Of a stretch of 64,000 nt of DNA, positions 39,884 through 53,590 are shown in pieces. Below the pieces are notes generated by a model that ran no database searches, had not been told where the DNA came from, and was given only the letters and a program-made list of their open reading frames with translations. The stretch's first letter is position 1; every line of letters begins with the position of its first letter. The DNA is from Alphaproteobacteria bacterium. GTDB lineage: Bacteria > Pseudomonadota > Alphaproteobacteria > Bin95. Made by a program: the position numbers and the translations under genes. The stretch spans positions 448,001 to 512,000 of the forward strand of contig OZ219788.1 in the NCBI GenBank assembly GCA_964291285.2, written 5' to 3'.

Positions 39884-41791
39884 CTATGGAATCGCTTCCG
39901 AACCCATATCGGTTGGTAAGGGCTCCAAGGTCTGCACGATCTCCTCCAGAATATCGAATACCTTTTCAAAGTGCCGAAAGTCTTGGTCCGTGCCTTCGTT
40001 ACGTAGCCAATCGCAGAGATTTCTTTTCTCGTCCTTATTTACACTCCAACATTCTGGAACTTGCTCTTGCCGTCCTCTAATGGTTCTGGCATGAGATGAG
40101 GCGATATCTATAAATTTCGGGTGATGTTTCCGAGCCCTCTCCAAAGTTGTCCTATCAAAAAGATTTTCGACTCCTTTCTTTATGGGATGATTTTGGAAGT
40201 AAGGCATTTTCCTTTTGTAGATGCTGGCTTCCTTGTCTTCCCTGTCTTGGCTTTCCGGATCATGCAGCAAGATTATCGTCTTTTCAGACAATGTGCCAAA
40301 ATTTACAAGCTTTTTTAAGCTCGTCCACATCATCTTCAGGTTTCCATTACCCCCAGAGCATTCAATTTCGAATTTTTCCAGGACATCATTTTTTCCAAGG
40401 AACGTTGCCGCACTCCTAAGGTAATCCCGATCTGTTTCACCTTCGACGATTATCATCAAATGTTGTGCATTTTCAACCAAATACCGAACCTCATTTGAAA
40501 ATCTTGTAGTGTCCTTATACGCCTGAAATGCTTGATCGAACTCGTCAAACTCCTCTGGAGAGATGCGAGAGCCGCTCGGAAGGTCGTAGATCTCGAATCC
40601 GTCGTCTCCAAACACCTTTGCCATTCCGAGGGCAAACAACACCGAATGCGTAGTCATTACAAACTGAATTTGAGGAAACATCCGAATCAGTGTCGGGAGT
40701 ATATCGTGCTGATGTCGTGCATGAAGATGCAGGTCAACCTCATCAACTACTACAACCCCTTTCACGTTTTCGATCGAAGTAAAAGGCATATTCCGCGCTT
40801 CCCTGAGATCAAAATCCCTCAGTATGGAAAAAAATAGTGTTAACAGAGTCATCTCTCCGCTGGACAGCTGGAAGAGATTGGGGACCAATGGCTGCTGATC
40901 GCCCTCCAAGCTTATGACTCGATTGTGTCTCCCGCCGATGCCAAACCGAAGATTTCTCTTTGCAGCCAATTCTGGCATAACGGCACGCAAGACTTCCAGT
41001 ACCGAATTGTACATATTTGTTGCATCGCCTTGATACCCAAGAAACAGGGGAAGCGTTGTAGTTTGCTTCTGCTCCTTATCCGAAGTAGCGGGAAGGGCAA
41101 TGGGAAAGTTGCCCGAGTGTATTTCGAAAGCTGCACGGTCATAGACAACGTCATACAACCAATCGTGGATGTCTCGAAGCGGCGAGTGAGCGATCAATCG
41201 ACGTCGAGTTTCTCCTTTCAGGCGAGAGCCCTGTGTATAATGTGGCTTGGCGCGTAGATTGCCCTCATTCAGCCAAGCTGGTTCTTCAGTACGATTGGAT
41301 GGAAAATAGAGTAAACAATTTTCTGATATTATGTTTTTTACGGCCGTGCTGTGTGAAGGATCCAGTATGTTGGATTTGAAGTGATCCATTTCTTCGTTAT
41401 CGAAGTGAGCTTCCCAAGCATCAAACCCGGGATTGCCGTCTGTCATCGGTGCTTGGGTATACTCTCCTTTTGGCTTTCTCAGGCGGAGTTCTTGAATAAA
41501 ATATTCAGGACGAAAGTCACACCTAGCATAGTAATATTCGGCTTCAACGGAGATGTAGGAGCTGCTGCGCAGCTTGAATACCCTGCCGGCATCCAATTCT
41601 CTCGAGTCCGGATAAACGCTGTCCTTGGCCATCACCATGGCATTGACTATGTGGGAAAGGACTATGGTCTTGCCGGAGCCGTTTTCGCCAACAAGCAGAA
41701 CGGGTTTCGGGCGATCTCCGTCGAACGGGAAGTGGAGGTCCAGATTCCGGAGCGGGCCGTAGTTCGCCAGCTGAAGCCGTGTCAGGTACAT
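39884..41791 (-). CDS. ABC-ATPase + TOPRIM (OLD-like) ATP-dependent nuclease
   Basis: GENGSGKT, LSSGE, VVVDEVDLHLH, TTHS; IIVEGETD, LLHDPE, GVENLF; markedly lower GC. Confidence 0.85.
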   Translation of the reverse strand: MYLTRLQLANYGPLRNLDLHFPFDGDRPKPVLLVGENGSGKTIVLSHIVNAMVMAKDSVYPDSRELDAGRVFKLRSSSYISVEAEYYYARCDFRPEYFIQELRLRKPKGEYTQAPMTDGNPGFDAWEAHFDNEEMDHFKSNILDPSHSTAVKNIISENCLLYFPSNRTEEPAWLNEGNLRAKPHYTQGSRLKGETRRRLIAHSPLRDIHDWLYDVVYDRAAFEIHSGNFPIALPATSDKEQKQTTTLPLFLGYQGDATNMYNSVLEVLRAVMPELAAKRNLRFGIGGRHNRVISLEGDQQPLVPNLFQLSSGEMTLLTLFFSILRDFDLREARNMPFTSIENVKGVVVVDEVDLHLHARHQHDILPTLIRMFPQIQFVMTTHSVLFALGMAKVFGDDGFEIYDLPSGSRISPEEFDEFDQAFQAYKDTTRFSNEVRYLVENAQHLMIIVEGETDRDYLRSAATFLGKNDVLEKFEIECSGGNGNLKMMWTSLKKLVNFGTLSEKTIILLHDPESQDREDKEASIYKRKMPYFQNHPIKKGVENLFDRTTLERARKHHPKFIDIASSHARTIRGRQEQVPECWSVNKDEKRNLCDWLRNEGTDQDFRHFEKVFDILEEIVQTLEPLPTDMGSEAIP

Positions 41792-41941: not shown

Positions 41942-42197
41942 CAGGCGAGGTCGAGTTTCCCTGAAGCTCCGAGAGTACAGTTCCCAGCAGCCGAAAGCAC
42001 CATGATCCGGAAGGAACCCAAGTCAGGTGCATAACACAGACTCCACGCGGCCGCACCTCAGTGGCGCGGACCGCGCCTGCCGTTCGGCGAGACGCCGCTC
42101 GGGCGTACTGCCGCGGGTGTCGGCCTCGATGCCCGCCTTCGGCAGGGTGCAGGCGTTGTCCAAACCAGCGAAGCCACGCTTGCTCCTGCGCCCGTCC

Positions 42198-42212
42198 GGT
42201 GTAAAATACACC
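42198..42212. promoter_or_regulatory. Palindromic putative operator upstream of the RHH gene
   Basis: GGTGTA-AAA-TACACC, about 28 bp before the ATG. Confidence 0.45.
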
Positions 42213-42240
42213 AGATGGGTTGGGTGAGGAGTCGAAGCTC

Positions 42241-42477
42241 ATGGGTCGGCCAAGGCAGAACAAGCAGACCGCCCGGCTGAGCGTCAGCTTCGAGAAAGCG
42301 GATTATGAGCAGGTTGCCGCGATTGCCGAAGCCAACGATGTGTCCACCGCGTGGATCATCCGGCAGGCCGTCACCGCTTATCTGGACGCTTACCGAGATT
42401 CGGCGCTTCCTTTTGATCCACGGCGTGGGCAAACGCCGGAACGCGCGCCGGTAACCGAGGGAAGGCGGGGCTCGTGA
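42241..42477 (+). CDS. CopG/ribbon-helix-helix regulator
   Basis: RLSVSF..DYEQVAAIAEANDVSTAWIIRQAV. Confidence 0.8.
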   Translation: MGRPRQNKQTARLSVSFEKADYEQVAAIAEANDVSTAWIIRQAVTAYLDAYRDSALPFDPRRGQTPERAPVTEGRRGS

Positions 42478-42608
42478 GCAAAAAGAGCGATCTCCCCTTC
42501 GGCAGCGAGTTTTCGCCCTCGCAGATTGAACTACCGAAGGCGCTGGAGTTTGCGGCTCGGCATGGCGGTAATTGGCGCGCCTTCGAGGAGACCGTGCGGG
42601 AAGCCTAG
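42474..42608 (+). pseudogene. 5' fragment of a putative restriction endonuclease, cut by IS630
   Basis: GTGA coupling to the RHH gene; SKKSDLPFGSEFSPSQIEL recalled from REase N-termini (not verified); ends at the IS target CTAG. Confidence 0.45.
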
Positions 42609-43790
42609 TCATCTGAATCTAAAGTTCGTGGCATAAGTTTTGTTCGACGCGGAGACAGAAGCGCTTGACGGCGGCGAGGATTTCGTCAGCTGATTTGGTC
42701 CATTTGAAGGGCTTGGGATTTTCGTTGTGGGTTTCGATGAAGGCCCGGATGTCGGTTTCGAGTTGCAGGGTCGAGCGGTGGACGCCGCGTTGCAACTGCT
42801 TGCGGGTCAGTTCGGCGAACCAGCGCTCGACCTGGTTGAGCCACGAGGCGGATGTCGGCGTGAAGTGGACGTGCCAGTGCGGCCGCCGGGCCAGCCAGGC
42901 TTTGACCGCGGCGGTCTTGTGGGTGGCGTAGTTGTCCATGACGATGTGGATGTCGAGCCCGTCCGGGACATTGCGGTCGATCACCTTGAGGAAGTCGAGG
43001 AACTCCCTGGCCCGGTGGCGGCGATAGCACTTGGCGATCACCGCACCGGTGGCGATGTCGAGCGCCGCGAACAGCGAGGTCGTGCCGTTGCGCTTGTAAT
43101 CGTGGGTGCGCCGCTCAGGGATGCCGGGCAGCATCGGCAGGACCGGCTGGGTGCGGTCGAGGGCCTGGATCCGGCTCTTTTCGTCGACGCAGAGCACCAG
43201 CGCGCGGTCCGGCGGCGAGAGGTAGAGGCCGACAATGTCGCGGACCTTGTCCACGAAGTGCGGATCGGCCGACAGCTTGAACGTCTCAGCCCGGTGCGGC
43301 TGCAGGCCGAACGCGCCCCAGAGGCGCCAGATCGACGTGTGCGACAGCTTCGCCTCCTTCGCCATCGAGCGCAGCGACCAGTGGGTCGCGTCCGCAGGCG
43401 TCGAGGTGAGCGTGCGCTCGATCACTTCCGCCACTTTCTCGTCCGCGATGCTCCGCGGGCGCCCCGGACGGGGCTCGTCCGAAAGCCCCTCGATGCGGTT
43501 CTTGACGAAACGCCTGCGCCACTTGCCGACGGTGTGCTCGTGCATGCCGAGTTCTGCGGCTACCGCCTTGTTGCCCAGCCCGTCAGCGCAACGCAGGATC
43601 ATGCGGCAGCGATCCGACAGCGAGCGCGCCACACGGTGACGCCGAACCTGCGCTTCCAGAAACGACCGTTCCTCATCGCTCAAGACCAAGGCCGCCAGCG
43701 GCCGTCCCGTACCGCGCCCCATCGAGATGACCTCCTTTGTCCGACCCGGAAGACCATCCTACAATGAACTCTACTTCAGTGCCAGGTGAC
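42608..43790 (-). mobile_element. IS630-family element
   Basis: Imperfect IR GTCATCTGAATCTAAAGT / GTCACCTGGCACTGAAGT, TA on both flanks. Confidence 0.88.
42619..43722 (-). CDS. IS630-family transposase
   Basis: RPGRP, THWS, VDEKS, MDNYATHK, FTPTSASWLNQVERWF. Confidence 0.95.
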   Translation of the reverse strand: MGRGTGRPLAALVLSDEERSFLEAQVRRHRVARSLSDRCRMILRCADGLGNKAVAAELGMHEHTVGKWRRRFVKNRIEGLSDEPRPGRPRSIADEKVAEVIERTLTSTPADATHWSLRSMAKEAKLSHTSIWRLWGAFGLQPHRAETFKLSADPHFVDKVRDIVGLYLSPPDRALVLCVDEKSRIQALDRTQPVLPMLPGIPERRTHDYKRNGTTSLFAALDIATGAVIAKCYRRHRAREFLDFLKVIDRNVPDGLDIHIVMDNYATHKTAAVKAWLARRPHWHVHFTPTSASWLNQVERWFAELTRKQLQRGVHRSTLQLETDIRAFIETHNENPKPFKWTKSADEILAAVKRFCLRVEQNLCHEL

Positions 43791-43792
43791 TA

Positions 43793-44629
43793 GGTCGTGT
43801 ACCCATAAGGGGTTTCTTCTTCAGCGCAGCTGTGATTCAAGCTCCCAACATCAGGGAGCGAGGACATGGGCCGGTACGATCTGACGGACTTCGAATGGCG
43901 GGTGATCAAGCCGTTGCTGCCGAACAAGACCCGTGGGGTGCCGCGGGTTGACGACCGGCGGGTGTTGAACGGCATTCTGTGGGTGCTTCGCGCGGGGGCG
44001 CCGTGGCGAGACCTGCCGGAGCACTACGGGCCTTGTACGACCTGCTACAACCGGTTCAACCGCTGGCGCAAGAAGGGCATCTGGGATCAGTTGATGGATG
44101 CGGTGGTGGAGGCTCACGACGGCAATGTGCAGATGATCGACAGTTCGAGCGTCCGGGTTCACCAGCATGCGGCGGGATCAAAAAAGGGGGTCCGGATCGT
44201 TGCATGGGCCGTTCCCGTGGCGGACTGACCACGAAGATCCACGCCGTGTCGGACGTGAGCGGCCTGCCGGTCCGCTATGACCTCAGCCCTGGCCAGGCGC
44301 ACGACACCACGGCCGCCGGTGCCATGCTGGCGACCCTGCCGCCCGACAGTTTCCTCATCGCCGACAAGGCCTATGACGCCAAATGGATCCGTGACCTGAT
44401 CGAGCAACACGATGCCGTCCCGATCATCCCCGACCGCGAAGGCGCGAAGACCAGGCACGCTTTCTCCAAACCCTTGTATAAATTGCGAAACCGGATCGAA
44501 CGCGCCTTCAACAAACTCAAGCAGTTCCGCCGCATCGCCACCCGATACGAAAAGCTCGCGGCCAACTTCCTCGCCATGATCAAGATCGCTACTGTCAGGC
44601 TCTGGCTACGCGCTTATGAGTCCACGGCC
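43793..44629 (+). mobile_element. IS5-family (IS427 group) element
   Basis: IR GGTCGTGTACCCATAAG / CTTATGAGTCCACGGCC, TA flanks. Confidence 0.88.
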
Positions 44630-44632
44630 TAA
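43866..44632 (+). CDS. IS5-family transposase, two ORFs joined by a probable -1 frameshift
   Basis: DLTDFEW, PWRDLP, IDSS; slippery A6G5 near 44180; GRSRGGLTTKIH, ADKAYD, IERAFNKLKQFRRIATRYEK. Confidence 0.9.
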
Positions 44633-44738
44633 TCTTCAAAAGCGATTCCCTTGGCCCAGCTACCCCCATATCTTGTGTTGGGCGAGTGTTTCTCCTCAGT
44701 ATGCTCGGTTTCAATAATAACCAAGGGGATTGCGGAAC

Positions 44739-45896
44739 ATGGCCATCAAACCACCTGATCAGGGCTTCATCTTCTGGCCCGTCGGCACGGGCGACAGCAC
44801 GACCATTCGAGTAACAGAAACGGTTTACCTTCAAATCGACCTTCGGCACATGGCCAAGGCGGGAAACCGCAGCGACCCCGCCTGGCCGGTCATCGACGAG
44901 CTCATACGTATCCTTCCGAGACTCAGCGGCACGCCATACCTGTCGGTGTTCGGACTTAGCCATCCCGATCTCGACCATTGCCAGGGCTTCGAGGAGTTGA
45001 AACGCCGCGTCATCGTCTCCGAACTCTGGATGTCGCCGCGCACCTTTCGCGAATTCATGGAGGGCGACGACCTTTGCGACGACGCACAAGCCTTTCACGA
45101 TGAGGCCATGCGTCGCGTCCAAGCCGCTATCCGGGCGGGCGGCGACCCCGGCCGGGGTAACCGCATTCGCATCATCGGCTACGACGACCTTCTGTGCGAA
45201 CGCGAGTTTCGTGGCTTCCCCGCGCAGTTCCTGACCATTCCCGGTAAGACCATTACGACACTGGACGGTGAGGATCTCTCCAATCGGTTCGAGGCGTTTG
45301 TCCACGCCCCGTTTCGCGAGGACAGCTTCGGTGACCGCAACGACTGCAGCCTCGCCTTCCAGGTCTCGCTCTACAATGGCAACCACGCTGGCCGGGCACT
45401 GCTCATGGGGGACCTCAGCTATCCCGTCATCCGGCGAATCTTCCACCGAAGTATCCGCACGACACTCGCCTGGAATGTGCTGCTCGCCCCGCATCATTGC
45501 TCGAAGTCCGCCATGTACTGGAAGGAAGAGGGGGACAGCGACGAGACCCTAAAGGAGCATATCGTTCGCGAGATCGCTGCCGCAGCCCTCAACCCGGGAC
45601 ATGTCGTCTCGAGTTCCGAACCTGTGCCGACACGCAACGACCCGGGCGACAACCCACCTCACGCCAAGGCGAAGAGACAGTACGAACGCATCGTCGCCAA
45701 CGCCTTCCTGTGCACCCACGAACACCCGAACCGCAAGAATCCCAAGCCGATCATCTTCGAGGTCGACCGGAACGGTTTCGCATATGTTGGCGACACACAA
45801 TCGAGCAGCTCCATGAGCGAGGTGCTGAAGGCTGTCGGCGGCGTCGCCGCGTCGCCGCCTGCCGTCGCGGTCGGATTCGGTCGTGGCAATAAGTGA
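44739..45896 (+). CDS. Metallo-beta-lactamase-fold (ComEC-like) hydrolase
   Basis: VGTGDS, SHPDLDHCQG, NDCSL, LMGD, APHHCSK; C-terminus AVGFGRGNK. Confidence 0.88.
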   Translation: MAIKPPDQGFIFWPVGTGDSTTIRVTETVYLQIDLRHMAKAGNRSDPAWPVIDELIRILPRLSGTPYLSVFGLSHPDLDHCQGFEELKRRVIVSELWMSPRTFREFMEGDDLCDDAQAFHDEAMRRVQAAIRAGGDPGRGNRIRIIGYDDLLCEREFRGFPAQFLTIPGKTITTLDGEDLSNRFEAFVHAPFREDSFGDRNDCSLAFQVSLYNGNHAGRALLMGDLSYPVIRRIFHRSIRTTLAWNVLLAPHHCSKSAMYWKEEGDSDETLKEHIVREIAAAALNPGHVVSSSEPVPTRNDPGDNPPHAKAKRQYERIVANAFLCTHEHPNRKNPKPIIFEVDRNGFAYVGDTQSSSSMSEVLKAVGGVAASPPAVAVGFGRGNK

Positions 45897-48800
45897 AGGG
45901 CAACGGATTGCCCTCACCCAACTCCGGCGTATCGCCAATACGCACCGATCTCCCATCCGGATCGTCGGTATCGACGATGACCCGGCTCCCGGCGCTTATC
46001 TGAACGTCGATATCTCGCTCGACTGCACGCACTACCCGCGTGTCGAGGGAGGCCTTCCGCTGCACGACCGAGAAGGCATCACGCTTTCGGTGCCGGCGGA
46101 TTTTCCATTCAGTTCGCCGTCGGTCGACACCCCCCATTCCCGGTTCCACGGCTTCGGCCATGTGCAGTGGGGAACCCGTCTCTGCGTTTATCTGTCCACC
46201 GAGACCCAGTGGATCCCCTCCCAAGGCATGTTCGGGTTCTTGGCGCAGATCGACGAGTGGTTTCGACGCGGAGCGCGAAACGAGCTCGACGATCCCGAGG
46301 GACCCCTGCACCCGCCGGTCACCTACCCGGTTGCCACAACTACGATCTGCGTCAACGCCGACACCCCGGCTCGTGATACCTGGCCATGGTTCGGCGCCGC
46401 CACCCTCCATGAGCCCAAACCGGCCCTTCTCGAAGTCCAGGCGTGGATCCCCCTGCATGCGCTCCCCGACCACATGCCGTTTGCGCCGACCGTGCTGCTG
46501 AACTTCGAGCTTCCGTTCGAGTACCCGCGCAAAGTACGATACCTTTTCGACTACCTGGAGGCCAAGGGACGTCTGGGCTACCGCTTCCTTGCCCACATGA
46601 TGGTCGCTTCCGAGCGGATCCCCGATAGCACCTCACTCTACATCGGCATCGGTGCGCCGTCGCGCGGCATCGCTGGCGACCCCGCACAACGAAACCAGCA
46701 CCTCACCTTCTGGGAAATTGAGCCGGGGGACGTCGCCAAGCTGCGCGCCGCATCCATCGCCTGCCAATTCAGCAACCGCTACAAAGGACAGGACACTCCC
46801 GCTGCCATACAGGCATTGAGCGACACCATCCTCGGCACCTTGTTTACCTGGAGGAAGGAAGCCCGTGTACGATGGTGTCATGTGATTGAGAACCGGCCCG
46901 AAGTCATCACTCGGCGCGACGAGGGCACATCGATGGACTGGTTTCGCGGCAAGCGCGTTGCGCTCTGGGGCTGCGGGGCGATCGGCGGGCTCATCGCCGA
47001 ACATCTCGTACGCGCCGGTGTGTCCCAACTCAAGCTCTTCGATCGAGGCCGTGTCGCTCCCAGTCTGCTGATACGGCAGAATTTCTCCGCACTCGACGCC
47101 AATGAGCCCAAGGCCGCGGCGCTTGCCGGGCGTCTGCAATCCATCGCCCCCGGACTTCAGGTCACGACCCGGTCCGAGGACCTCATCTCGCACACCCTCG
47201 CCGAACCGGACTGGGACGCGGATGCCGACCTCATCATCGACGCGACCGCGTCCCTGCAGGTGCGCAGCAAGCTCGAGGCGCTGCTCAAGGAGCACGAGCG
47301 CCAGGCTCCCATTGCGACCTTGATGATCAGCGCCACCGCCCGCCAAGCGGTTGCGGTGCTCGCTCCAACCGGATACCGCGCCGGCCCCCTCGACGCGCTT
47401 CGCCGTCTCGGCATCGCCGCCATCGCGCGGGACTGGCTGAGCGACTGGTCCGAAGCCTTCTGGACCCAGGGGGCCATCGACGGCCTCCGCCAACCCGAGC
47501 CCGGCTGCTCCAATCCGACCTTCGTGGCGTCGCATACCGATGTCGCCGCGCTCTCTGCCCAAGCCCTCAACGCTCTCGCCCAAATCCTCGCCGAACCGGA
47601 CGATGCAGCCAGCGGTCTTCTCATTTCGTGCTCTCCCCATCGTCGCGAGCACAGGTTCCGCTTTCGACCCGACATGCGCTGGATCGCCGATGGAATCGAC
47701 TTCCGCATGTCCATGAACGCCTGGCGCGACATGACGGGCTGGGTCCGCGCCGGCGCCCGTGAACGCTCCGCCGAGCACGAGACCGGCGGCCTGCTGTTCG
47801 GCGAGTTGGACGAGACCCTCGGAATCGCGTGGATTACCAACGTCAGCGGCCCCCCGCGCGACAGCACCTTCTCTCCCGAGGGCTTCGTTTGCGGAACGCA
47901 CGGCACGAGGGAGCTGTGCGAGGACTACCGCGCGCGCACCGACGGTATCGTTCGCTACATCGGCACCTGGCATTCCCATCCGGTCGGTAGTGCCCAACCC
48001 AGCTTCACCGACTACCTGGGCATCACCGACATCTTTACAGCGGCTCCTGATGACGGCGCCCATCATTTGATGGCGATCGTCGGCCACGCGGTCCGTACGC
48101 AACCGGAACTCGGAGTCTACACATTCCAGAAACAGAAACTCGCCGCGCTTGATACCGAAACCGAGCTGGCCCTTTCGGTCCGCGGCGGCATCACCACTCC
48201 GCCTCCCGTCGCGGCGCTCGACAAGGTGATCGGTCTGGCACTCTCTGGCGGCGGATCACGCGCCGTTGCGTTTCACCTTGGCGCCTTGCGCGCGCTCGAA
48301 GACCTGAACTTGCTCAATGAGGTCGACGTGATCTCCGGCGTGTCGGGTGGGGCCGTCATGACCGGGAGGCTCGGCTATACAGAAGCACCGTTCGTCGACA
48401 TAGATCGCAACATCGTCCAGTTCCTTCGCCGGGGCCTGGTAGTGCCGGGACTCGTGAAACTCATCCATCCCGCGCGCGCTGCGCCCCTTGTATGGAACTT
48501 CGTCTTCGTCGCCTTCCCAACGCTCCTTGTCGACCTCCTCACCGGGTCGGCGAGTCGTGTCGCCTCGCTCTTCCCGGGTCTCCGCAGTGCATGCGCCGCG
48601 CTGTCCCGCACCTCGTGGCCCATCCGACGCCGCTACTCGCTAACGCATGTGTTGGCCGACGCCATTGCCGACGTGGTCGGCCCGCAGACATGCGATGCAC
48701 CCACCCGTCAGCACAAGTTGATCGTCTTCAACGCGTGTGAGCTTCGAACCGGCACTGCCTTCCGCATGAGCAACCAACGCTTCGGCTCCTACCGGTATGG

Positions 48801-49383
48801 ATGGGCTCCGGCCAGAGAACTTCGCGTGGCCGACGCCGTCGCAGCCTCGGCCGCTTACCCGCCGTTACTTCCGCCCTTCGACTGGAGAAGGCCGTTCAAA
48901 CGAAACGACAAGACCGAAATGCAGCGGGTCATCGTGACCGATGGCGGCGTTTTCGAGAACCTCGGCATTACCGTCATGGAACCTGACCGGGATCCCCGGA
49001 TCAGCACGATTGACTACGACGTCGACATCATCATTGCAAGCGACGCCGGGATCGGCCAGTTCACCGGCGAGATCCGCCCCCTCAGCTGGCCGAAGCGCAT
49101 GAGCCAAGTCGTCTCCGCAATCATGCGAAAGGTCCAGGACGCGACCAAGCAACGCCTACACGAGCACGCCAAGGCGGAACGCATTGACGGCTTCGTCTAC
49201 GCCGCTCTCGGACAGATCGACCGGCGGGTGCCGCTCAAGCCAGCCAACTGGGTCGACAGAGAAGATGTGATTCGTTATCCGACCGATTTCTCCGCGATGT
49301 CGGAGGTCGACATTCGACGGCTCTCCGGACGAGGTGAGGCCATCATGCGGACTCTGGTCACGCAATACCTTCTGAGTGACTGA
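45883..49383 (+). CDS. E2 - E1(ThiF) - JAB - patatin phospholipase fusion protein
   Basis: E2 HVQ..LC (C101); E1 GCGAIG, RQNF, IDATA, EPGC (C542); JAB ETGG, WHSHP..PSFTD; patatin SGGGSR, GVSGG, DGG. Confidence 0.9.
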   Translation: MAISEGQRIALTQLRRIANTHRSPIRIVGIDDDPAPGAYLNVDISLDCTHYPRVEGGLPLHDREGITLSVPADFPFSSPSVDTPHSRFHGFGHVQWGTRLCVYLSTETQWIPSQGMFGFLAQIDEWFRRGARNELDDPEGPLHPPVTYPVATTTICVNADTPARDTWPWFGAATLHEPKPALLEVQAWIPLHALPDHMPFAPTVLLNFELPFEYPRKVRYLFDYLEAKGRLGYRFLAHMMVASERIPDSTSLYIGIGAPSRGIAGDPAQRNQHLTFWEIEPGDVAKLRAASIACQFSNRYKGQDTPAAIQALSDTILGTLFTWRKEARVRWCHVIENRPEVITRRDEGTSMDWFRGKRVALWGCGAIGGLIAEHLVRAGVSQLKLFDRGRVAPSLLIRQNFSALDANEPKAAALAGRLQSIAPGLQVTTRSEDLISHTLAEPDWDADADLIIDATASLQVRSKLEALLKEHERQAPIATLMISATARQAVAVLAPTGYRAGPLDALRRLGIAAIARDWLSDWSEAFWTQGAIDGLRQPEPGCSNPTFVASHTDVAALSAQALNALAQILAEPDDAASGLLISCSPHRREHRFRFRPDMRWIADGIDFRMSMNAWRDMTGWVRAGARERSAEHETGGLLFGELDETLGIAWITNVSGPPRDSTFSPEGFVCGTHGTRELCEDYRARTDGIVRYIGTWHSHPVGSAQPSFTDYLGITDIFTAAPDDGAHHLMAIVGHAVRTQPELGVYTFQKQKLAALDTETELALSVRGGITTPPPVAALDKVIGLALSGGGSRAVAFHLGALRALEDLNLLNEVDVISGVSGGAVMTGRLGYTEAPFVDIDRNIVQFLRRGLVVPGLVKLIHPARAAPLVWNFVFVAFPTLLVDLLTGSASRVASLFPGLRSACAALSRTSWPIRRRYSLTHVLADAIADVVGPQTCDAPTRQHKLIVFNACELRTGTAFRMSNQRFGSYRYGWAPARELRVADAVAASAAYPPLLPPFDWRRPFKRNDKTEMQRVIVTDGGVFENLGITVMEPDRDPRISTIDYDVDIIIASDAGIGQFTGEIRPLSWPKRMSQVVSAIMRKVQDATKQRLHEHAKAERIDGFVYAALGQIDRRVPLKPANWVDREDVIRYPTDFSAMSEVDIRRLSGRGEAIMRTLVTQYLLSD

Positions 49384-49416
49384 ACTTCAAACACCCTGAC
49401 CTCGTCCAACGTTAAG

Positions 49417-50179
49417 CCGAAGTTCCAGCACCGATCAGACGTATCATTATGAATGTATTGACGTTTGAAAAAATCGGGTGTGTCGCTACTGGGAACGCTA
49501 CAAGCGTACGCCGAGGTAGTCTAGGGCCTTTTTCTGGAGCGGCGTGGGCCGCGTGGTGACCTGGAAGGGTTGGGCGCCCGCAAGGCGGGGCGCCACGGTG
49601 TTGCGGGTGGCGAGATCGTCGATGAGGGTGGAGAAGCTGTGCCACCCCCGGGTGTCCTCTTGGTTGCCGCCTTGGCCCGGGCGCTCGCCGAGACCTCTGC
49701 TGGCGCCACGACGGAAGGGCGCCTTCGGCATCCTCGTCGTCGAACAGCATGGGCTTCAGTTTCTGGCGCATGTGCCATTCGATGTAGTAGGCGAGCATGC
49801 ACAGGAAGACATGGGCCCGGGGCTCGGTGCGGTGGTAGACGGGACGGACCTTCAGATCCACGGTCTTCAGGCTGCGGAAGGCCCGTTCCACCGAACTCAA
49901 CCGCTTGTAGGCGCGCACCGCGCCGGGACCGTCGAGCTCGCTCTGCGGCAGGCTGGTGCGGATCACGTAGAGGCCGTCGAGCCTGGCCTCGGCGGCGATG
50001 GCAGCCTCATCGCGCCCATAGGTGAAGACACCGTCGTCGTCGATGGACCACGTGAAGTGCTTCGCCATCTTGTACTTGCCGATGACCTTCCGCTCCCCGA
50101 TCTTCCCGGCGCTTGTCGCGCCGTGTCGCTGCTGCGATCGGTTCAAGCAGGGCCTCGGTGGCCTCGAGCAGTTCCTGGC
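49417..50179 (-). mobile_element. IS1634-family remnant (decayed 3' part)
   Basis: KYKMAKHF, DGLYVIRTS, YKRLSSVERAFRSLK, RAHVFLCMLAY; frameshifts. Confidence 0.8.
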
Positions 50180-50369
50180 TGTCAATCGGCGTTCAAAGTT
50201 GACCCCGGATCGGCGCGGAAGATTGACCCCTCTTTAGGTTGTCCCGGTAGTCAACAGGAGGGCCCCGCGCGGCTCCGCGTAGCGCCCTGCGATACGTGGA
50301 GCGGAGCCGCGTGGGAGGTGCCTGTTGACCCACCGGGGCAACCGGGCCGCCGGCCTGGGCGTCGCCGGG

Positions 50370-51098
50370 TCACGATCGATGTTTGAAGCGCCAGCTCTGG
50401 TTGCCGGTTTCGACAATGTCGCAATGATGGGTCAGGCGGTCGAGGAGCGCGGTGGTCATCTTGGGATCGCCGAACACGGAGGGCCATTCGCCGAAGGCGA
50501 GGTTTGTGGTGATGATGATCGAGGTGCGCTCGTAGAGCCGGCTCATCAGGTGGAAGAGCAGCTGTCCTCCGGCCTGGGCGAAGGGGAGGTATCCGAGTTC
50601 GTCGAGGACGACGAAGTCGCGCCGGGCGAGCTGCTGGGCGGTACGACCCTGGCGCCCGGCGCGATGCTCGGCCTCAAGCAGATTGACCAGGTCGACGGTG
50701 TTGTAGCAGCGCCCGCGGCAGCCCTGCCGGATGCAGGCGCGCACGATGGCGACGGCAAGATGCGTTTTGCCGCTGCCGGTTCCGCCGACCAGGACGAGAT
50801 TGCGCTTTCCTTCCAGGAAGGCGCCGGTGACCAGTTCCTGGATCAGGGCCTCGTTGACCGGGGAGGCCGCGAAGTCGAAGTCGGCCAGTTCCTTGGCCAT
50901 CGGCAGCCTGGCGCTTGCCATCTGGTATTTGATCGAGCGCGCCGTCTTGTCGGCGATCTCGGCCTGCAGCAGCGCGGCGATGATCTTCGGCGCCGGGTGG
51001 CGGCGCTTGATGGCGTCGGCGAGGATATCGTCCCAGGCGGCGCGCATGCCCGACAGCTTGAGGGCGGTCATCATCGCCAACACGTCATGACGCTCCAT
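50370..51098 (-). CDS. istB: IS21 helper ATPase
   Basis: [31 protein letters not shown]. Confidence 0.93.
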
Positions 51099-52599
51099 GG
51101 CCGGCCTCCCTCAGACGGTCGTAGCGGTGGCAGTCGGCCACTGGCTGATGGCGAAGCTGCAAGCCCTCGGGCGTCGGGATGGGCGGAACCGGCGCCGGCT
51201 GGCGATGCCGGGCGAGGATGTTGAGCACGACGTCGGCGCTGCAGGCGCCATTGGCGAGCGCCTCGGCGCAGGCGGCTTCGACCGCCTCAAGTCCGTCCTC
51301 CAGAACCGCTGTAAGGATCCGGACGATCTGGCGGTCGCCATCGTCATGGCCGGACAGCCGGGCTCGCAGCCGACCGAGGGCATCGGGCAACGGCCAGTCC
51401 TTGAAGGGCGCGCCGTTGCGCAGCGCGCCGGGCTTGCGTGCCAGGATCGGCACGTAGTGCCACGGATCGCAGGTGACCGTGCCGCGCGCGAAGCTCCGGG
51501 GGTGCTCGGCAACCGTCTCGCCGTCCTGGCGGATGACGATCCGGTTGGCGTAGGCCCGCACGTCGACCGGCCGGCCGACGGCGCGGGCGGCAACGCTGTA
51601 GTGGTTGTTGTCGAAGCGCACCAGGCAGGTCTTCGAGACCGCCGACTCAACCGCGTGGAAGCCGTCGAACGGACCGCAATACCCCACCAGGAACGGCTGC
51701 TCCTCCTCGAACACCTCCCACACCGTCTTGCCCGCGATCGACGGATGCGCGCGGCGCTTGGCGTCCCGGATGCAGGCGTCCATGAGCCATGCGTTCAGCT
51801 CATCATGGGAGCGGCCCCGCAGGCGCGGCACGAACAGGCGGCTGCGGGCGTAGCCCACCTGGTTCTCTACCTGGCCCTTCTCCCATGCCGCCCCGGGGGT
51901 GCAGGCCACAGGCTCTACCAGGTGATGGGAGCACATCTCCAGGAAGCGACGGTTGTAGGCGCGCTCCTTGCCGATGAAGATCGCGCTCACCGCCGTCTTC
52001 ATATTGTCGTAGATCCCCCGGCGGCACGACCCGCCGAAGAGCCGGAACGCCCGCTCGTGCGCCTCGAACACCATCTCCTGGCCTTCGCGCGGGAAGACCT
52101 GCACCAGCATCATGCGGCTGTGGCAAAGGCGCATGTGCGCCGCCTTCACCCGGGTCGTCACGCCCGACAGAACCGCGTATTCGTGGCTCCAGTCGAACTG
52201 GTAGGCCTCGCCGGGGGCAAAGCTCAGCGGCACGAACGCCTGCGAAGCCGACAAGGCACGGCGCTCGCGGCGCCAGACGCCGGCATAGCGACGAACGGCG
52301 TCATAACCGCCGGCATAGCCCAACGCCGCCAGCTCCTCATACATCCGCATCAGCGACAGGCGATCCCGGCGAGCCTTCTTCTCGTTCGCCTCCAGATAGC
52401 CGTCCAGAACCTCGATCCACGGACCCGGCTTTGGACGCGACTGAACCTTCCGCCCGTAGCTGAACGACGTCTCTCCGCTCCGGACCGCCTTGCGGACCGT
52501 GTTCCGGGATACCTTCAGCTCCCGGACAAGCTTCTTGATCGGGACCCCCTTGCCCAGATGCTCTCGACGGATACGCGCGATCGTCTCCACAACCAACAT
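51085..52599 (-). CDS. istA: IS21 transposase
   Basis: [42 protein letters not shown]. Confidence 0.93.
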
Positions 52600-52717
52600 C
52601 TCCCACCTCCTCGTCCATCAAGAAAACGAGGCGGCTTCAAAGGACACAGCCCTCGGGGGGTCAATTTTGGAAGCCGATCACCCCCGAACGGGGGTCAATA
52701 TTCCACGCCGAATTACA

Positions 52718-53590
52718 TCGGCAAAACGCATCTGGCCATAAGCCTCGCGATCGCCGCGGCCGAAGCTGGACGGCGCGTCTACTACGGCACGCTCGCAGGG
52801 CTGATCGACTCCCTCACCGAGGCCAAGGCCGCCGGCAACCTGTCCCACCGGCTGCGCGTGCTCACACACCCGGCGCTGCTGGTGGTCGACGAGATCGGCT
52901 ACCTGCCCGTCAACCAGGACGGCGCCGTGCTCTTCTTCCAGCTCATCAACGCCAGGCACGAGAAGGCATCGACCGTGCTGACCTCGAACAAGGGCTTCGA
53001 GGACTGGGGCGGCGTGCTCGGCGACGAGGTCATGGCGGCGGCTCTCATCGACCGCCTGGTCCACCACTGCCACATCGTCAACATCCGGGGGAACTCCTAC
53101 CGGATGCGCGATCATCAGAACCTGCTGCAGTCCGGCTCGGACCGGCGACGCAAGAGGGCCGCCGCGTGATCCCCGCCCGGAGCAAAAACGGCAACGGTGA
53201 CCGCCGCCCGCTATGGATAACCGGGTTGTCGCCGCCAGACTCGCGGCGGTCGCTGCGCCAACCCGGTTACCCAAAGCTCCATCGAGGCCCACACCCCAAG
53301 CACCGTGCCGGGCGAAAGGGATCAAAGACAAAAGTGAGCAATTTTCACTTGCCAAAACCTTCATTGCCGGGCGGGTCGGCCACCCCGTATCATGAAAACA
53401 GGTGCCGGCCGCGCGGGCGGGACTTCGGGCTTTTACGGGGTTGCCTACCGGTCACGGTCCGCAAGACGGGCACCGCAGATGGCGAGTATCGGACGCCTCG
53501 GGAGCAGTGCTCTGGCGGGGAGGGGTTTTTGTGCGCTCAATCCCCAATAATTTTCACGGCAAAATGCGCAATTTTCGGCTGCCATTGACA
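52718..53590 (+). mobile_element. Right-hand remnant of a second IS21 (istB fragment 52718-53169)
   Basis: GKTHLA, VDEIGY, TSNK, IDRLVHH; GCAATTTTC repeats; terminal CATTGACA. Confidence 0.82.
53358..53559 (+). repeat. 202-bp MITE-like element, copy 2, inside the IS21 end
   Basis: Flanked by the direct repeat CAAAA (53353-53357, 53560-53564). Confidence 0.88.

Follow-up and report, generated by a model that had tools for sequence, protein, structure and literature searches.

A patatin-linked 6A-MBL cassette whose MBL-fold protein is a probable ubiquitin-like payload

Bacterial E1–E2–JAB systems that conjugate whole enzymes instead of ubiquitin-like domains are a recent discovery. In type II CBASS (cyclic-oligonucleotide-based anti-phage signalling systems), Cap2 is reported to adenylate the disordered, conserved C-terminus of a CD-NTase (cGAS/DncV-like nucleotidyltransferase), to form thioesters with it and to ligate it to targets (10.1101/2022.03.31.486616). 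Here we describe a cassette that encodes a machinery of this kind and no CD-NTase. The cassette lies in a stretch of 64,000 nucleotides (nt) from an uncultured Alphaproteobacteria bacterium (metagenome-assembled genome; GenBank assembly GCA_964291285.2, contig OZ219788.1, positions 448,001–512,000 of the forward strand), hereafter the window. It consists of gene A, which encodes a metallo-β-lactamase (MBL)-fold protein, and gene B, which encodes E2, E1, JAB and patatin domains on one polypeptide. By sequence comparison it belongs to a patatin-linked branch of the 6A-MBL anti-phage family, and we think it likely that the MBL protein is itself the ubiquitin-like payload, trimmed by the JAB domain and ligated through E1 and E2. 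An original prediction, made from the letters of the window, had proposed this role for the MBL protein, and comparison across the family supports it; the idea is already in print in general terms (PMC11601596) and is in line with current assumptions in the field about 6A-MBL.

A 6A-MBL gene pair with an added patatin module

The two genes and the domains of the second are as follows.

44739–45896, plus strand: gene A, MBL-fold protein of the 6A-MBL system, 385 amino acids (aa) from ATG 44739
45883–49383, plus strand: gene B, 1166-aa E2–E1–JAB–patatin fusion with a GTG start (Pfam, PADLOC and NCBIfam)
45994–46371, plus strand: E2 domain of gene B, Prok-E2_A, aa 38–163 (Pfam; H93 and C101 invariant)
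46945–47292, plus strand: E1 adenylation core of gene B, ThiF, aa 355–470 (Pfam; invariant residues)
47758–48027, plus strand: JAB/JAMM metallopeptidase of gene B, Prok-JAB, aa 626–715 (Pfam, PADLOC and NCBIfam)
48235–49380, plus strand: patatin-like phospholipase module of gene B (Pfam match at aa 785–1030; the module extends to the C-terminus)

Gene A occupies an open frame at 44730–45896 on the plus strand, and its residues are numbered here from the 388-aa open reading frame (ORF) that begins at TTG 44730. The true start is probably ATG 44739, giving a product of 385 aa, because aligned homologues begin MAIxPPDQGF and a GGGGA sequence lies 9 nt upstream of this ATG. Translation of 44730–45896 yields a protein that ends ...VGDTQSSSSMSEVLKAVGGVAASPPAVAVGFGRGNK*, the C-terminus reading ...SSSSMSEVLKAVGGVAASPPAVAVGFGRGNK. 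A Pfam search of the product returned no match. NCBIfam model NF058524 (‘6A-MBL system MBL-fold protein’) scored 285.5 bits over aa 15–349 (E = 5.5e-85; cut-off 220). The AlphaFold2 (AF2) model has an MBL fold, with a mean predicted local distance difference test score (pLDDT) of 73 and a predicted template modelling score (pTM) of 0.79; its top Foldseek match is the β-lactamase-like domain of ComEC (9ic4, E = 1.7e-9), and phosphodiesterases and MBLs of the RNase type come next. Translation, profile match and fold thus bear out the prediction that a tail of the form ...AVGFG-RGNK sits on an MBL-fold protein. Residues H78, D80, D82, H83, D228, H255 and H256 are invariant in 25 aligned homologues. 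The metal motif is H78-x-D80-x-D82-H83 rather than HxHxDH, and both H-x-D-x-D-H and P-H255-H256-C-S (PHHCS) are kept family-wide. Because the metal-binding motif, D228 and PHHCS are conserved across the family, the enzyme is probably active. This ComEC-like hydrolase is probably a phosphodiesterase or a nuclease.

The E1–E2, JAB and patatin partner that the original prediction assumed is a single neighbouring protein of 1166 aa. It matches NCBIfam NF058523 (‘6A-MBL system cap2_3 protein’) over aa 57–732 with 338.2 bits (cut-off 320), the CBASS-derived PADLOC models for E1–E2 (PDLC00857, E = 1.3e-76) and JAB (PDLC00890, E = 3.3e-20), and, by sequence, the Cap2 entries 7to3 and 7tsq of the Protein Data Bank (PDB). 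In an alignment of 25 homologues, with identity down to 38%, the invariant positions include H93 and C101 in E2; G363-C-G-A-x-G368 (the Rossmann motif), R398, Q399, D405, K410, D449, D453 and C542 in E1; the JAMM set E633, H697-x-H699, S707 and D710; and G789-G-G-x-R793, S821 in GxSxG, and D1020-G-G in the patatin module. Judged by position, C542 (47506–47508, in PEPGCS) is likely to be the E1 catalytic cysteine and C101 would be that of E2; for E. cloacae Cap2, the cysteines are given as C109 and C548 (10.1101/2022.03.31.486616).

The family goes back to operon type ‘6a’ of Iyer, Burroughs and Aravind (2006; PMC1779556). According to two later papers (10.1101/2025.09.30.679545, PMC13276650), van den Berg et al. 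(2024) named it 6A-MBL and confirmed its anti-phage activity in Pseudomonas aeruginosa. Shared with that family is an MBL gene on the same strand as, and directly upstream of, the E2–E1–JAB gene, an order that recurs in 16 related loci and in 9 loci from other genomes, and both proteins score above the NCBIfam equivalog cut-offs. The window MBL and canonical ones also have H-x-D-x-D-H, PHHCS and an [aromatic/His/Ala]-Gly C-terminus in common. The window differs from canonical systems as follows: its MBL scores 285 bits against 344–450 bits for canonical MBLs; tails on its side of the family read [V/T]G[F/Y]G plus an extension, whereas canonical tails are mostly terminal HG, YG or AG; and gene B adds a patatin phospholipase of about 400 aa to what is otherwise a simple two-gene system without a further effector.

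The C-terminal tail and its four-residue extension

Three further features lie where gene A ends and gene B begins.

45792–45881, plus strand: disordered C-terminal linker and tail of gene A, aa 355–384 (pLDDT below 50; motif conserved in homologues)
45882–45896, plus strand: extension R385-G386-N387-K388 and stop (RGNK at 45882–45893, TGA at 45894–45896), a proposed pro-peptide
45883–45896, plus strand: 14-nt overlap between the end of gene A and the start of gene B, with translational coupling

Residues 355–388 form a tail of about 30 residues with pLDDT below 50 in the AF2 model, and are predicted to be disordered. The original prediction had placed this region at 45802–45896; its end coincides with the stop codon, whereas its start is one base off, the codon of S358 being 45801–45803. 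Within the tail, G382, F383 and G384, encoded at 45873–45881, are invariant across the 25 aligned homologues. A search for close homologues returned 2536 proteins at E ≤ 0.001. Among the best 120, which are 67–97% identical, 117 read ...[AVIT]GFG followed by 2–4 variable residues (RGTE, HGTQ, RDTE, CGAK, RGA and others). Those without the motif are P0087, ending ...GRIRSWH, P0095, ending ...GRIRS, and P0117, ending ...GGFRVCRR; the ends of the first two are probably frameshifted calls, as they fit the +1 frame of GTC GGA TTC GGT CGT GG.

The pattern extends to distant members. An exhaustive HMMER search of 50%-identity representatives gave 579 relatives; from the best 150 we kept the 78 of at least 340 aa (28–49% identity) and dropped 72 shorter ones as fragments. 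An [F/Y/H/W][G/A] dipeptide occurs within the last 8 residues of 65 of these 78 full-length representatives, compared with a background of 9.3% of internal 8-residue windows for the same dipeptide class in the same proteins. Thirty-three of the 78 stop exactly on the motif (...TYG, ...EHG, ...RHG, ...RFA, ...RYA or ...GFG), and the other motif-bearing representatives have 1–6 extra residues. In a search of other genomes of the phylum, 11 of 401 scored above the cut-off, and ten MBLs taken from such genomes end in PHG, THG-LR, PHG, KHG-DDD, GHG, AHG-CRNKDS, RAG, RAG, GFG-R and GYG-D. The tail is conserved far beyond chance. The alignment of homologue C-termini that the original prediction had suggested as a check thus returned an aromatic residue or His followed by Gly or Ala, at the end or 1–6 residues before it, family-wide.

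Some relatives are built differently: P0164, P0149, P0254, P0252 and P0262 are 504–714 aa long, with extra N- or C-terminal regions, and may belong elsewhere in gene context. The distant representative P0264 has ...GTGRFA as its C-terminus; for the E. cloacae CdnD peptide crystallized in Cap2, the reported end is ...TGRFA (10.1101/2022.03.31.486616); as far as these peptides tell, the MBL and CD-NTase families converge on the same five-residue end.

After GFG the codons read CGT GGC AAT AAG TGA, and the GTG start of gene B sits within CGT-GGC. With a 14-nt overlap, a start codon inside the extension codons and GGA TTC GG lying 6–13 nt before the GTG, GFG might be no more than the translation of a conserved ribosome-binding and start region of gene B, under constraint at the DNA level. 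All three GFG codons, however, vary synonymously among related loci (GGA/GGG, TTC/TTT and GGT/GGC/GGA), which places the conservation of the motif in the protein. In distant members, [aromatic/His]-Gly is retained although both its codons and its residues differ (TYG, PHG, RFA), and many of them stop there without an overlap, as locus L018 does. On this evidence we reject DNA-level constraint for the GFG motif, for which it is a highly improbable explanation, and accept it for the extension.

Seventeen related loci with both gene ends intact show how the extension follows the overlap. Of these, 11 open the extension with CGT, TGT, CAT or AGT followed by GGC, a pattern (NGT or NAT, then GGC) that embeds the gene B start codon ([AG]TG) and accounts for R, C, H or S at position +1 and G at position +2. 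The gene B start codon is shifted one or two positions along in L012, L013 and L021, whereas L014 and L015 have a TYG-RA end with a TGATG junction. In L018 the MBL stops exactly on TYG and the next gene begins after it. Across the family, the extension varies in both sequence and length, from 0 to 6 aa. It looks like a by-product of the gene overlap that would have to be removed, and a variable, dispensable stub behind a putatively reactive Gly is the mark of a precursor in need of trimming.

Ubiquitin-like precursors share these traits. Both Atg8/LC3 and the pre-proteins of bacterial Bil/Bub ubiquitin-like proteins (Ubls) have a reactive Gly and a short, variable, dispensable extension, whereas the payload here would be an enzyme of about 40 kDa without a β-grasp domain, and its processing is presumed. 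Atg8 ends in Phe-Gly followed by one residue that is removed. Cap2 is reported to resemble ATG7 and ATG10/ATG3 (10.1101/2022.03.31.486616), and Jenson et al. describe Atg8/LC3 as the single-Gly exception (PMC10097602).

A proposed conjugation cycle and its rivals

How might such a tail be used? We infer trimming, adenylation, transfer, a target and the identity of the effector as follows. The MBL protein would take the role held by the CD-NTase in type II CBASS and would be made as a ...GFG-RGNK precursor, the extension being present since the start codon of gene B is embedded in it. The JAB domain of gene B would remove RGNK and expose Gly384 as the mature, conjugated C-terminus. The E1 domain would then adenylate Gly384, which would pass as a thioester to C542 and on to C101, and the MBL protein would be ligated through Gly384 to an amine on some target, a ligation that JAB could reverse. 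The original prediction's choice of a phage protein, a host protein or the patatin domain as that target is pure speculation. Conjugation would be expected to switch on or relocate killing activities, namely those of the MBL hydrolase, the CapV-like patatin phospholipase, or both.

Type II CBASS has the same parts in a different arrangement. A Cap2-like E2–E1 and a Cap3-like JAB are present in both; the CBASS payload, like the gene A tail, has a disordered C-terminus with a conserved small residue; and MBL, E2–E1–JAB and patatin, which are three genes in loci L060 and L061, parallel CD-NTase, Cap2, Cap3 and CapV. The cassette differs in having no CD-NTase and only two genes, with the counterparts of Cap2, Cap3 and the phospholipase on one polypeptide. 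It also differs in that four residues follow the conserved Gly384 on its disordered tail, whereas CD-NTases are reported mostly to end on Gly or Ala itself (PMC10097602); the gene A product would match only if trimmed. Cap3 is described as cutting precisely behind the final residue of the CD-NTase, also when GFP is fused to it (10.1101/2022.03.31.486616), and the terminal Gly or Ala of CD-NTases as needed for both the thioester and defence (PMC10097602).

Placing the tail in the E1 site, a second check that the original prediction had named, also came out in its favour, though weakly. We predicted a complex of two copies of E1 residues 320–610 with tail residues 350–384 and ATP, using custom alignments and three controls. 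The ipSAE scores were 0.53, 0.57 and 0.56 against 0.00 in all three controls (taken as 0.56 against a best control of 0.00), which the tool rates as ‘weak support’; the partner had a pLDDT of 42–43, and at least 48% of contacts were common between runs. In calibration, 58 of 80 solved complexes passed the tool’s mark, as did 2 of 110 mismatched pairs, and the range up to 0.60 held only 7 of the 80 solved complexes and both of the passing mismatches. We give this prediction little weight.

Several points weigh against the MBL protein as payload. The E1–tail score falls in a band where, by the tool’s own account, a pairing that was not already probable fails more often than it holds, and the prediction may be remembered from the solved Cap2–CdnD complexes 7to3 and 7tsq. 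The encoded C-terminus of gene A is Lys, not Gly, so the scheme hangs on the presumed trimming. Thirteen of the 78 distant representatives are without the motif, among them P0242, P0252, P0254 and P0262, which are longer and have other C-termini. H192, taken as motif 3 of the MBL fold, is replaced by Leu in the aligned canonical members, which leaves the metal site incompletely mapped. Finally, the penultimate residue is reported to vary in CD-NTases (PMC10097602), and the aromatic is therefore a feature of the MBL family and not of Cap2 substrates generally; the remark in the original prediction that the ligated residue often comes after an aromatic fits the ...TGRFA end of the CdnD peptide and not these varied ends.

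The lysine end and the weakly supported E1–tail complex would also suit an MBL protein that is no substrate at all. E2–E1–JAB would then act elsewhere or regulate the patatin module, itself a second candidate effector; the RGNK-ended MBL would be a free hydrolase, and GFG would serve folding or some other partner. But the cassette offers no other candidate payload gene. A small separate Ubl gene was sought within it and none was found, there being no room between the insertion sequence (IS) fragments on either side: just 107 nt upstream and 28 nt downstream are free, and therefore this genome has no further cassette gene. In addition, the motif is exactly terminal in 33 of the 78 distant homologues and in 6 of the 10 MBLs of the searched genomes, which is hard to square with the folding of a disordered segment. 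We consider this explanation quite improbable.

A different account keeps the tail in contact with gene B and dispenses with third-party ligation. The tail would be a docking or regulatory element, or would form an adduct in cis with the gene B protein, holding the MBL inactive or near the patatin module. Cap2 is reported to form CD-NTase–Cap2 conjugates in vitro, which serve as an activity read-out (10.1101/2022.03.31.486616), and, with ligase, peptidase and phospholipase on one polypeptide, a cis-adduct would unite all the activities of the cassette. Two papers, moreover, describe the physiological targets of CD-NTase conjugation as still unidentified (PMC11601596, PMC10097602). Against this, C101 and H93 of E2 are invariant, although docking alone would not need them, and CBASS conjugates to many cellular proteins are reported to have been seen and to correlate with activity (PMC10097602). 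We regard docking or a cis-adduct as unlikely, and favour ligation of the MBL protein through Gly384.

The patatin-linked branch and its spread

If the MBL protein is the payload, the patatin module may be what conjugation controls. The module is modelled with a pLDDT of 77, and its best PDB folds are CapV (9jeh, E = 1.5e-10), plant patatin (1oxw, E = 3.5e-9) and CapE (9ioq, E = 7.1e-9), so that CBASS phospholipases lead plant patatin only narrowly. Its sequence kinship with CBASS effectors is weak (PADLOC PDLC00755, E = 0.002; NCBIfam DS2_1, E = 0.01). A long, poorly conserved hydrophobic helical insertion separates the GxSxG strand from the remainder of the fold (gene B aa 850–935, about 48430–48630, model residues about 94–149) and could act as a lid or bind the membrane.

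The NF058523 profile has 665 positions and stops before the patatin module. A PF01734 match is found in 116 of the best 120 homologues of the first 760 residues of gene B, and in the seven canonical loci the partner runs 744–815 aa from stop to stop with no patatin match. Among 22 related loci, the full fusion lies in one frame in 14; it is split by a frame break in L009 and L015 and cut by contig ends in L012 and L021, whereas L016 and L017 are rearranged, L019 is on a short contig and L022 has merely a 29-residue match. In L060 and L061, from other genomes, patatin is a separate third gene directly after E2–E1–JAB. We built a quick maximum-likelihood tree from 54 selected MBLs, namely 16 + 10 ORFs of the loci and 28 full-length representatives out of the 78, with a midpoint root for drawing only. 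It has a deep split (SH-aLRT 100), with the window MBL and all 16 patatin-linked loci on one side and all 7 patatin-less loci on the other. Tails on the patatin-linked side read [V/T]G[F/Y]G, and those on the other side are mostly terminal HG, YG, AG, FA or YA.

Some of the related loci carry broken genes. An interruption of about 1–3 kb lies within the MBL gene in L017 (6001–10148) and L020 (5959–8785), about 2.4 kb separate the two E1 halves of gene B in L061 (1152–5981), and gene B occupies two frames in L009 and L015. The system may be costly and often inactivated, or the assemblies may be in error.

A search of the whole genome, estimated to be 100% complete, for SMODS (CD-NTase) domains, the one cyclase family covered, gave no match. 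The cassette has no CD-NTase either, so that payload and patatin module are not connected by any known cyclic-nucleotide signal. Because no cyclic-nucleotide synthase was found, we tentatively raise a further idea, about which we are more doubtful than not: the patatin-linked branch may be a distinct pathway of three modules (MBL, Cap2/Cap3 and CapV-like phospholipase), in which the conjugation cycle gates the phospholipase directly, through a thioester or adduct on the same polypeptide or through the MBL product.

The cassette is bordered on both sides by transposase genes and their fragments.

42619–43722, minus strand: upstream flank, DDE_3/HTH transposase
43979–44632, plus strand: upstream flank, DDE_Tnp_1 fragment
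49412–50185, minus strand: downstream flank, DDE_Tnp_1 fragment
51085–52599, minus strand: downstream flank, rve/Mu-transposase-C ORF
51097–53169, plus strand: downstream flank, ORF with an IstB_IS21 match

The IstB match of the last ORF is confined to its final 140 residues, and the ORF overlaps the rve ORF on the opposite strand. Farther upstream, 3 kb away past the transposases, a 635-aa ORF (39884–41791, minus strand) matches AAA_21 (AbiEii-type), AAA_15 and AAA_23, and is an OLD/ABC-type ATPase of a kind found in defence systems; the 184-aa ORF that adjoins it (42058–42612, minus strand) has no Pfam match.

MBL relatives that are 67–87% identical come from metagenome-assembled genomes labelled Alphaproteobacteria, Pseudohongiella, Terriglobia, Longimicrobiales, Prochlorococcaceae, Binatia and others, and the hosts of L001–L013 span at least five phyla (Pseudomonadota, Acidobacteriota, Gemmatimonadota, Cyanobacteriota and Binatota). 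The patatin-linked branch is abundant in metagenomes and is shared between phyla at about 70% identity. Because close relatives span phyla and IS elements flank the cassette here, the evidence points to frequent, recent horizontal transfer of the patatin-linked cassette.

Five of 21 related loci carry another cassette, with its modules split, directly upstream of the MBL gene on the plus strand: L009 (2441–5958), L013 (2733–5970), L014, L015 and L020. This block encodes a ThiF-type E1, a JAB, a ComEC-like MBL of 280–290 aa and either one or two small E2-like proteins, one of which is Phd/YefM-like at its N-terminus; no such second E1/E2/JAB and MBL block is present in the window. The block and the 6A-MBL pair look like two related E1/E2/JAB and MBL systems travelling in tandem. 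Its MBLs end in TRHVA, TRLVG, TRCVR, TRCVR and TRRVA, with no clear conjugation motif and no aromatic-Gly tail, and we did not use them in support of the payload reading.

The patatin-linked branch, with patatin fused or as a separate third gene, looks undescribed. A literature search found no paper on the MBL tail, the patatin fusion or MBL conjugation, although van den Berg 2024, Burroughs 2015 or their supplements may cover these; as far as searched, the family-wide precursor pattern, the origin of the extension in the gene overlap and the patatin-linked branch are new. The 6A-MBL family would provide a second, independent payload beside that of CBASS, with a conjugation motif that is family-wide and many members that would be precursors with 1–6 extra residues. 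In the patatin-linked branch the proposed pro-peptide coincides with the overlap with the next gene, which predicts that trimming by JAB is obligatory there. The branch could also show conjugation itself, without a nucleotide signal, turning on an effector. If the three-module reading is true, the cassette would be a CBASS-like abortive-infection switch that works without a nucleotide second messenger, with a ComEC-like hydrolase replacing the CD-NTase.

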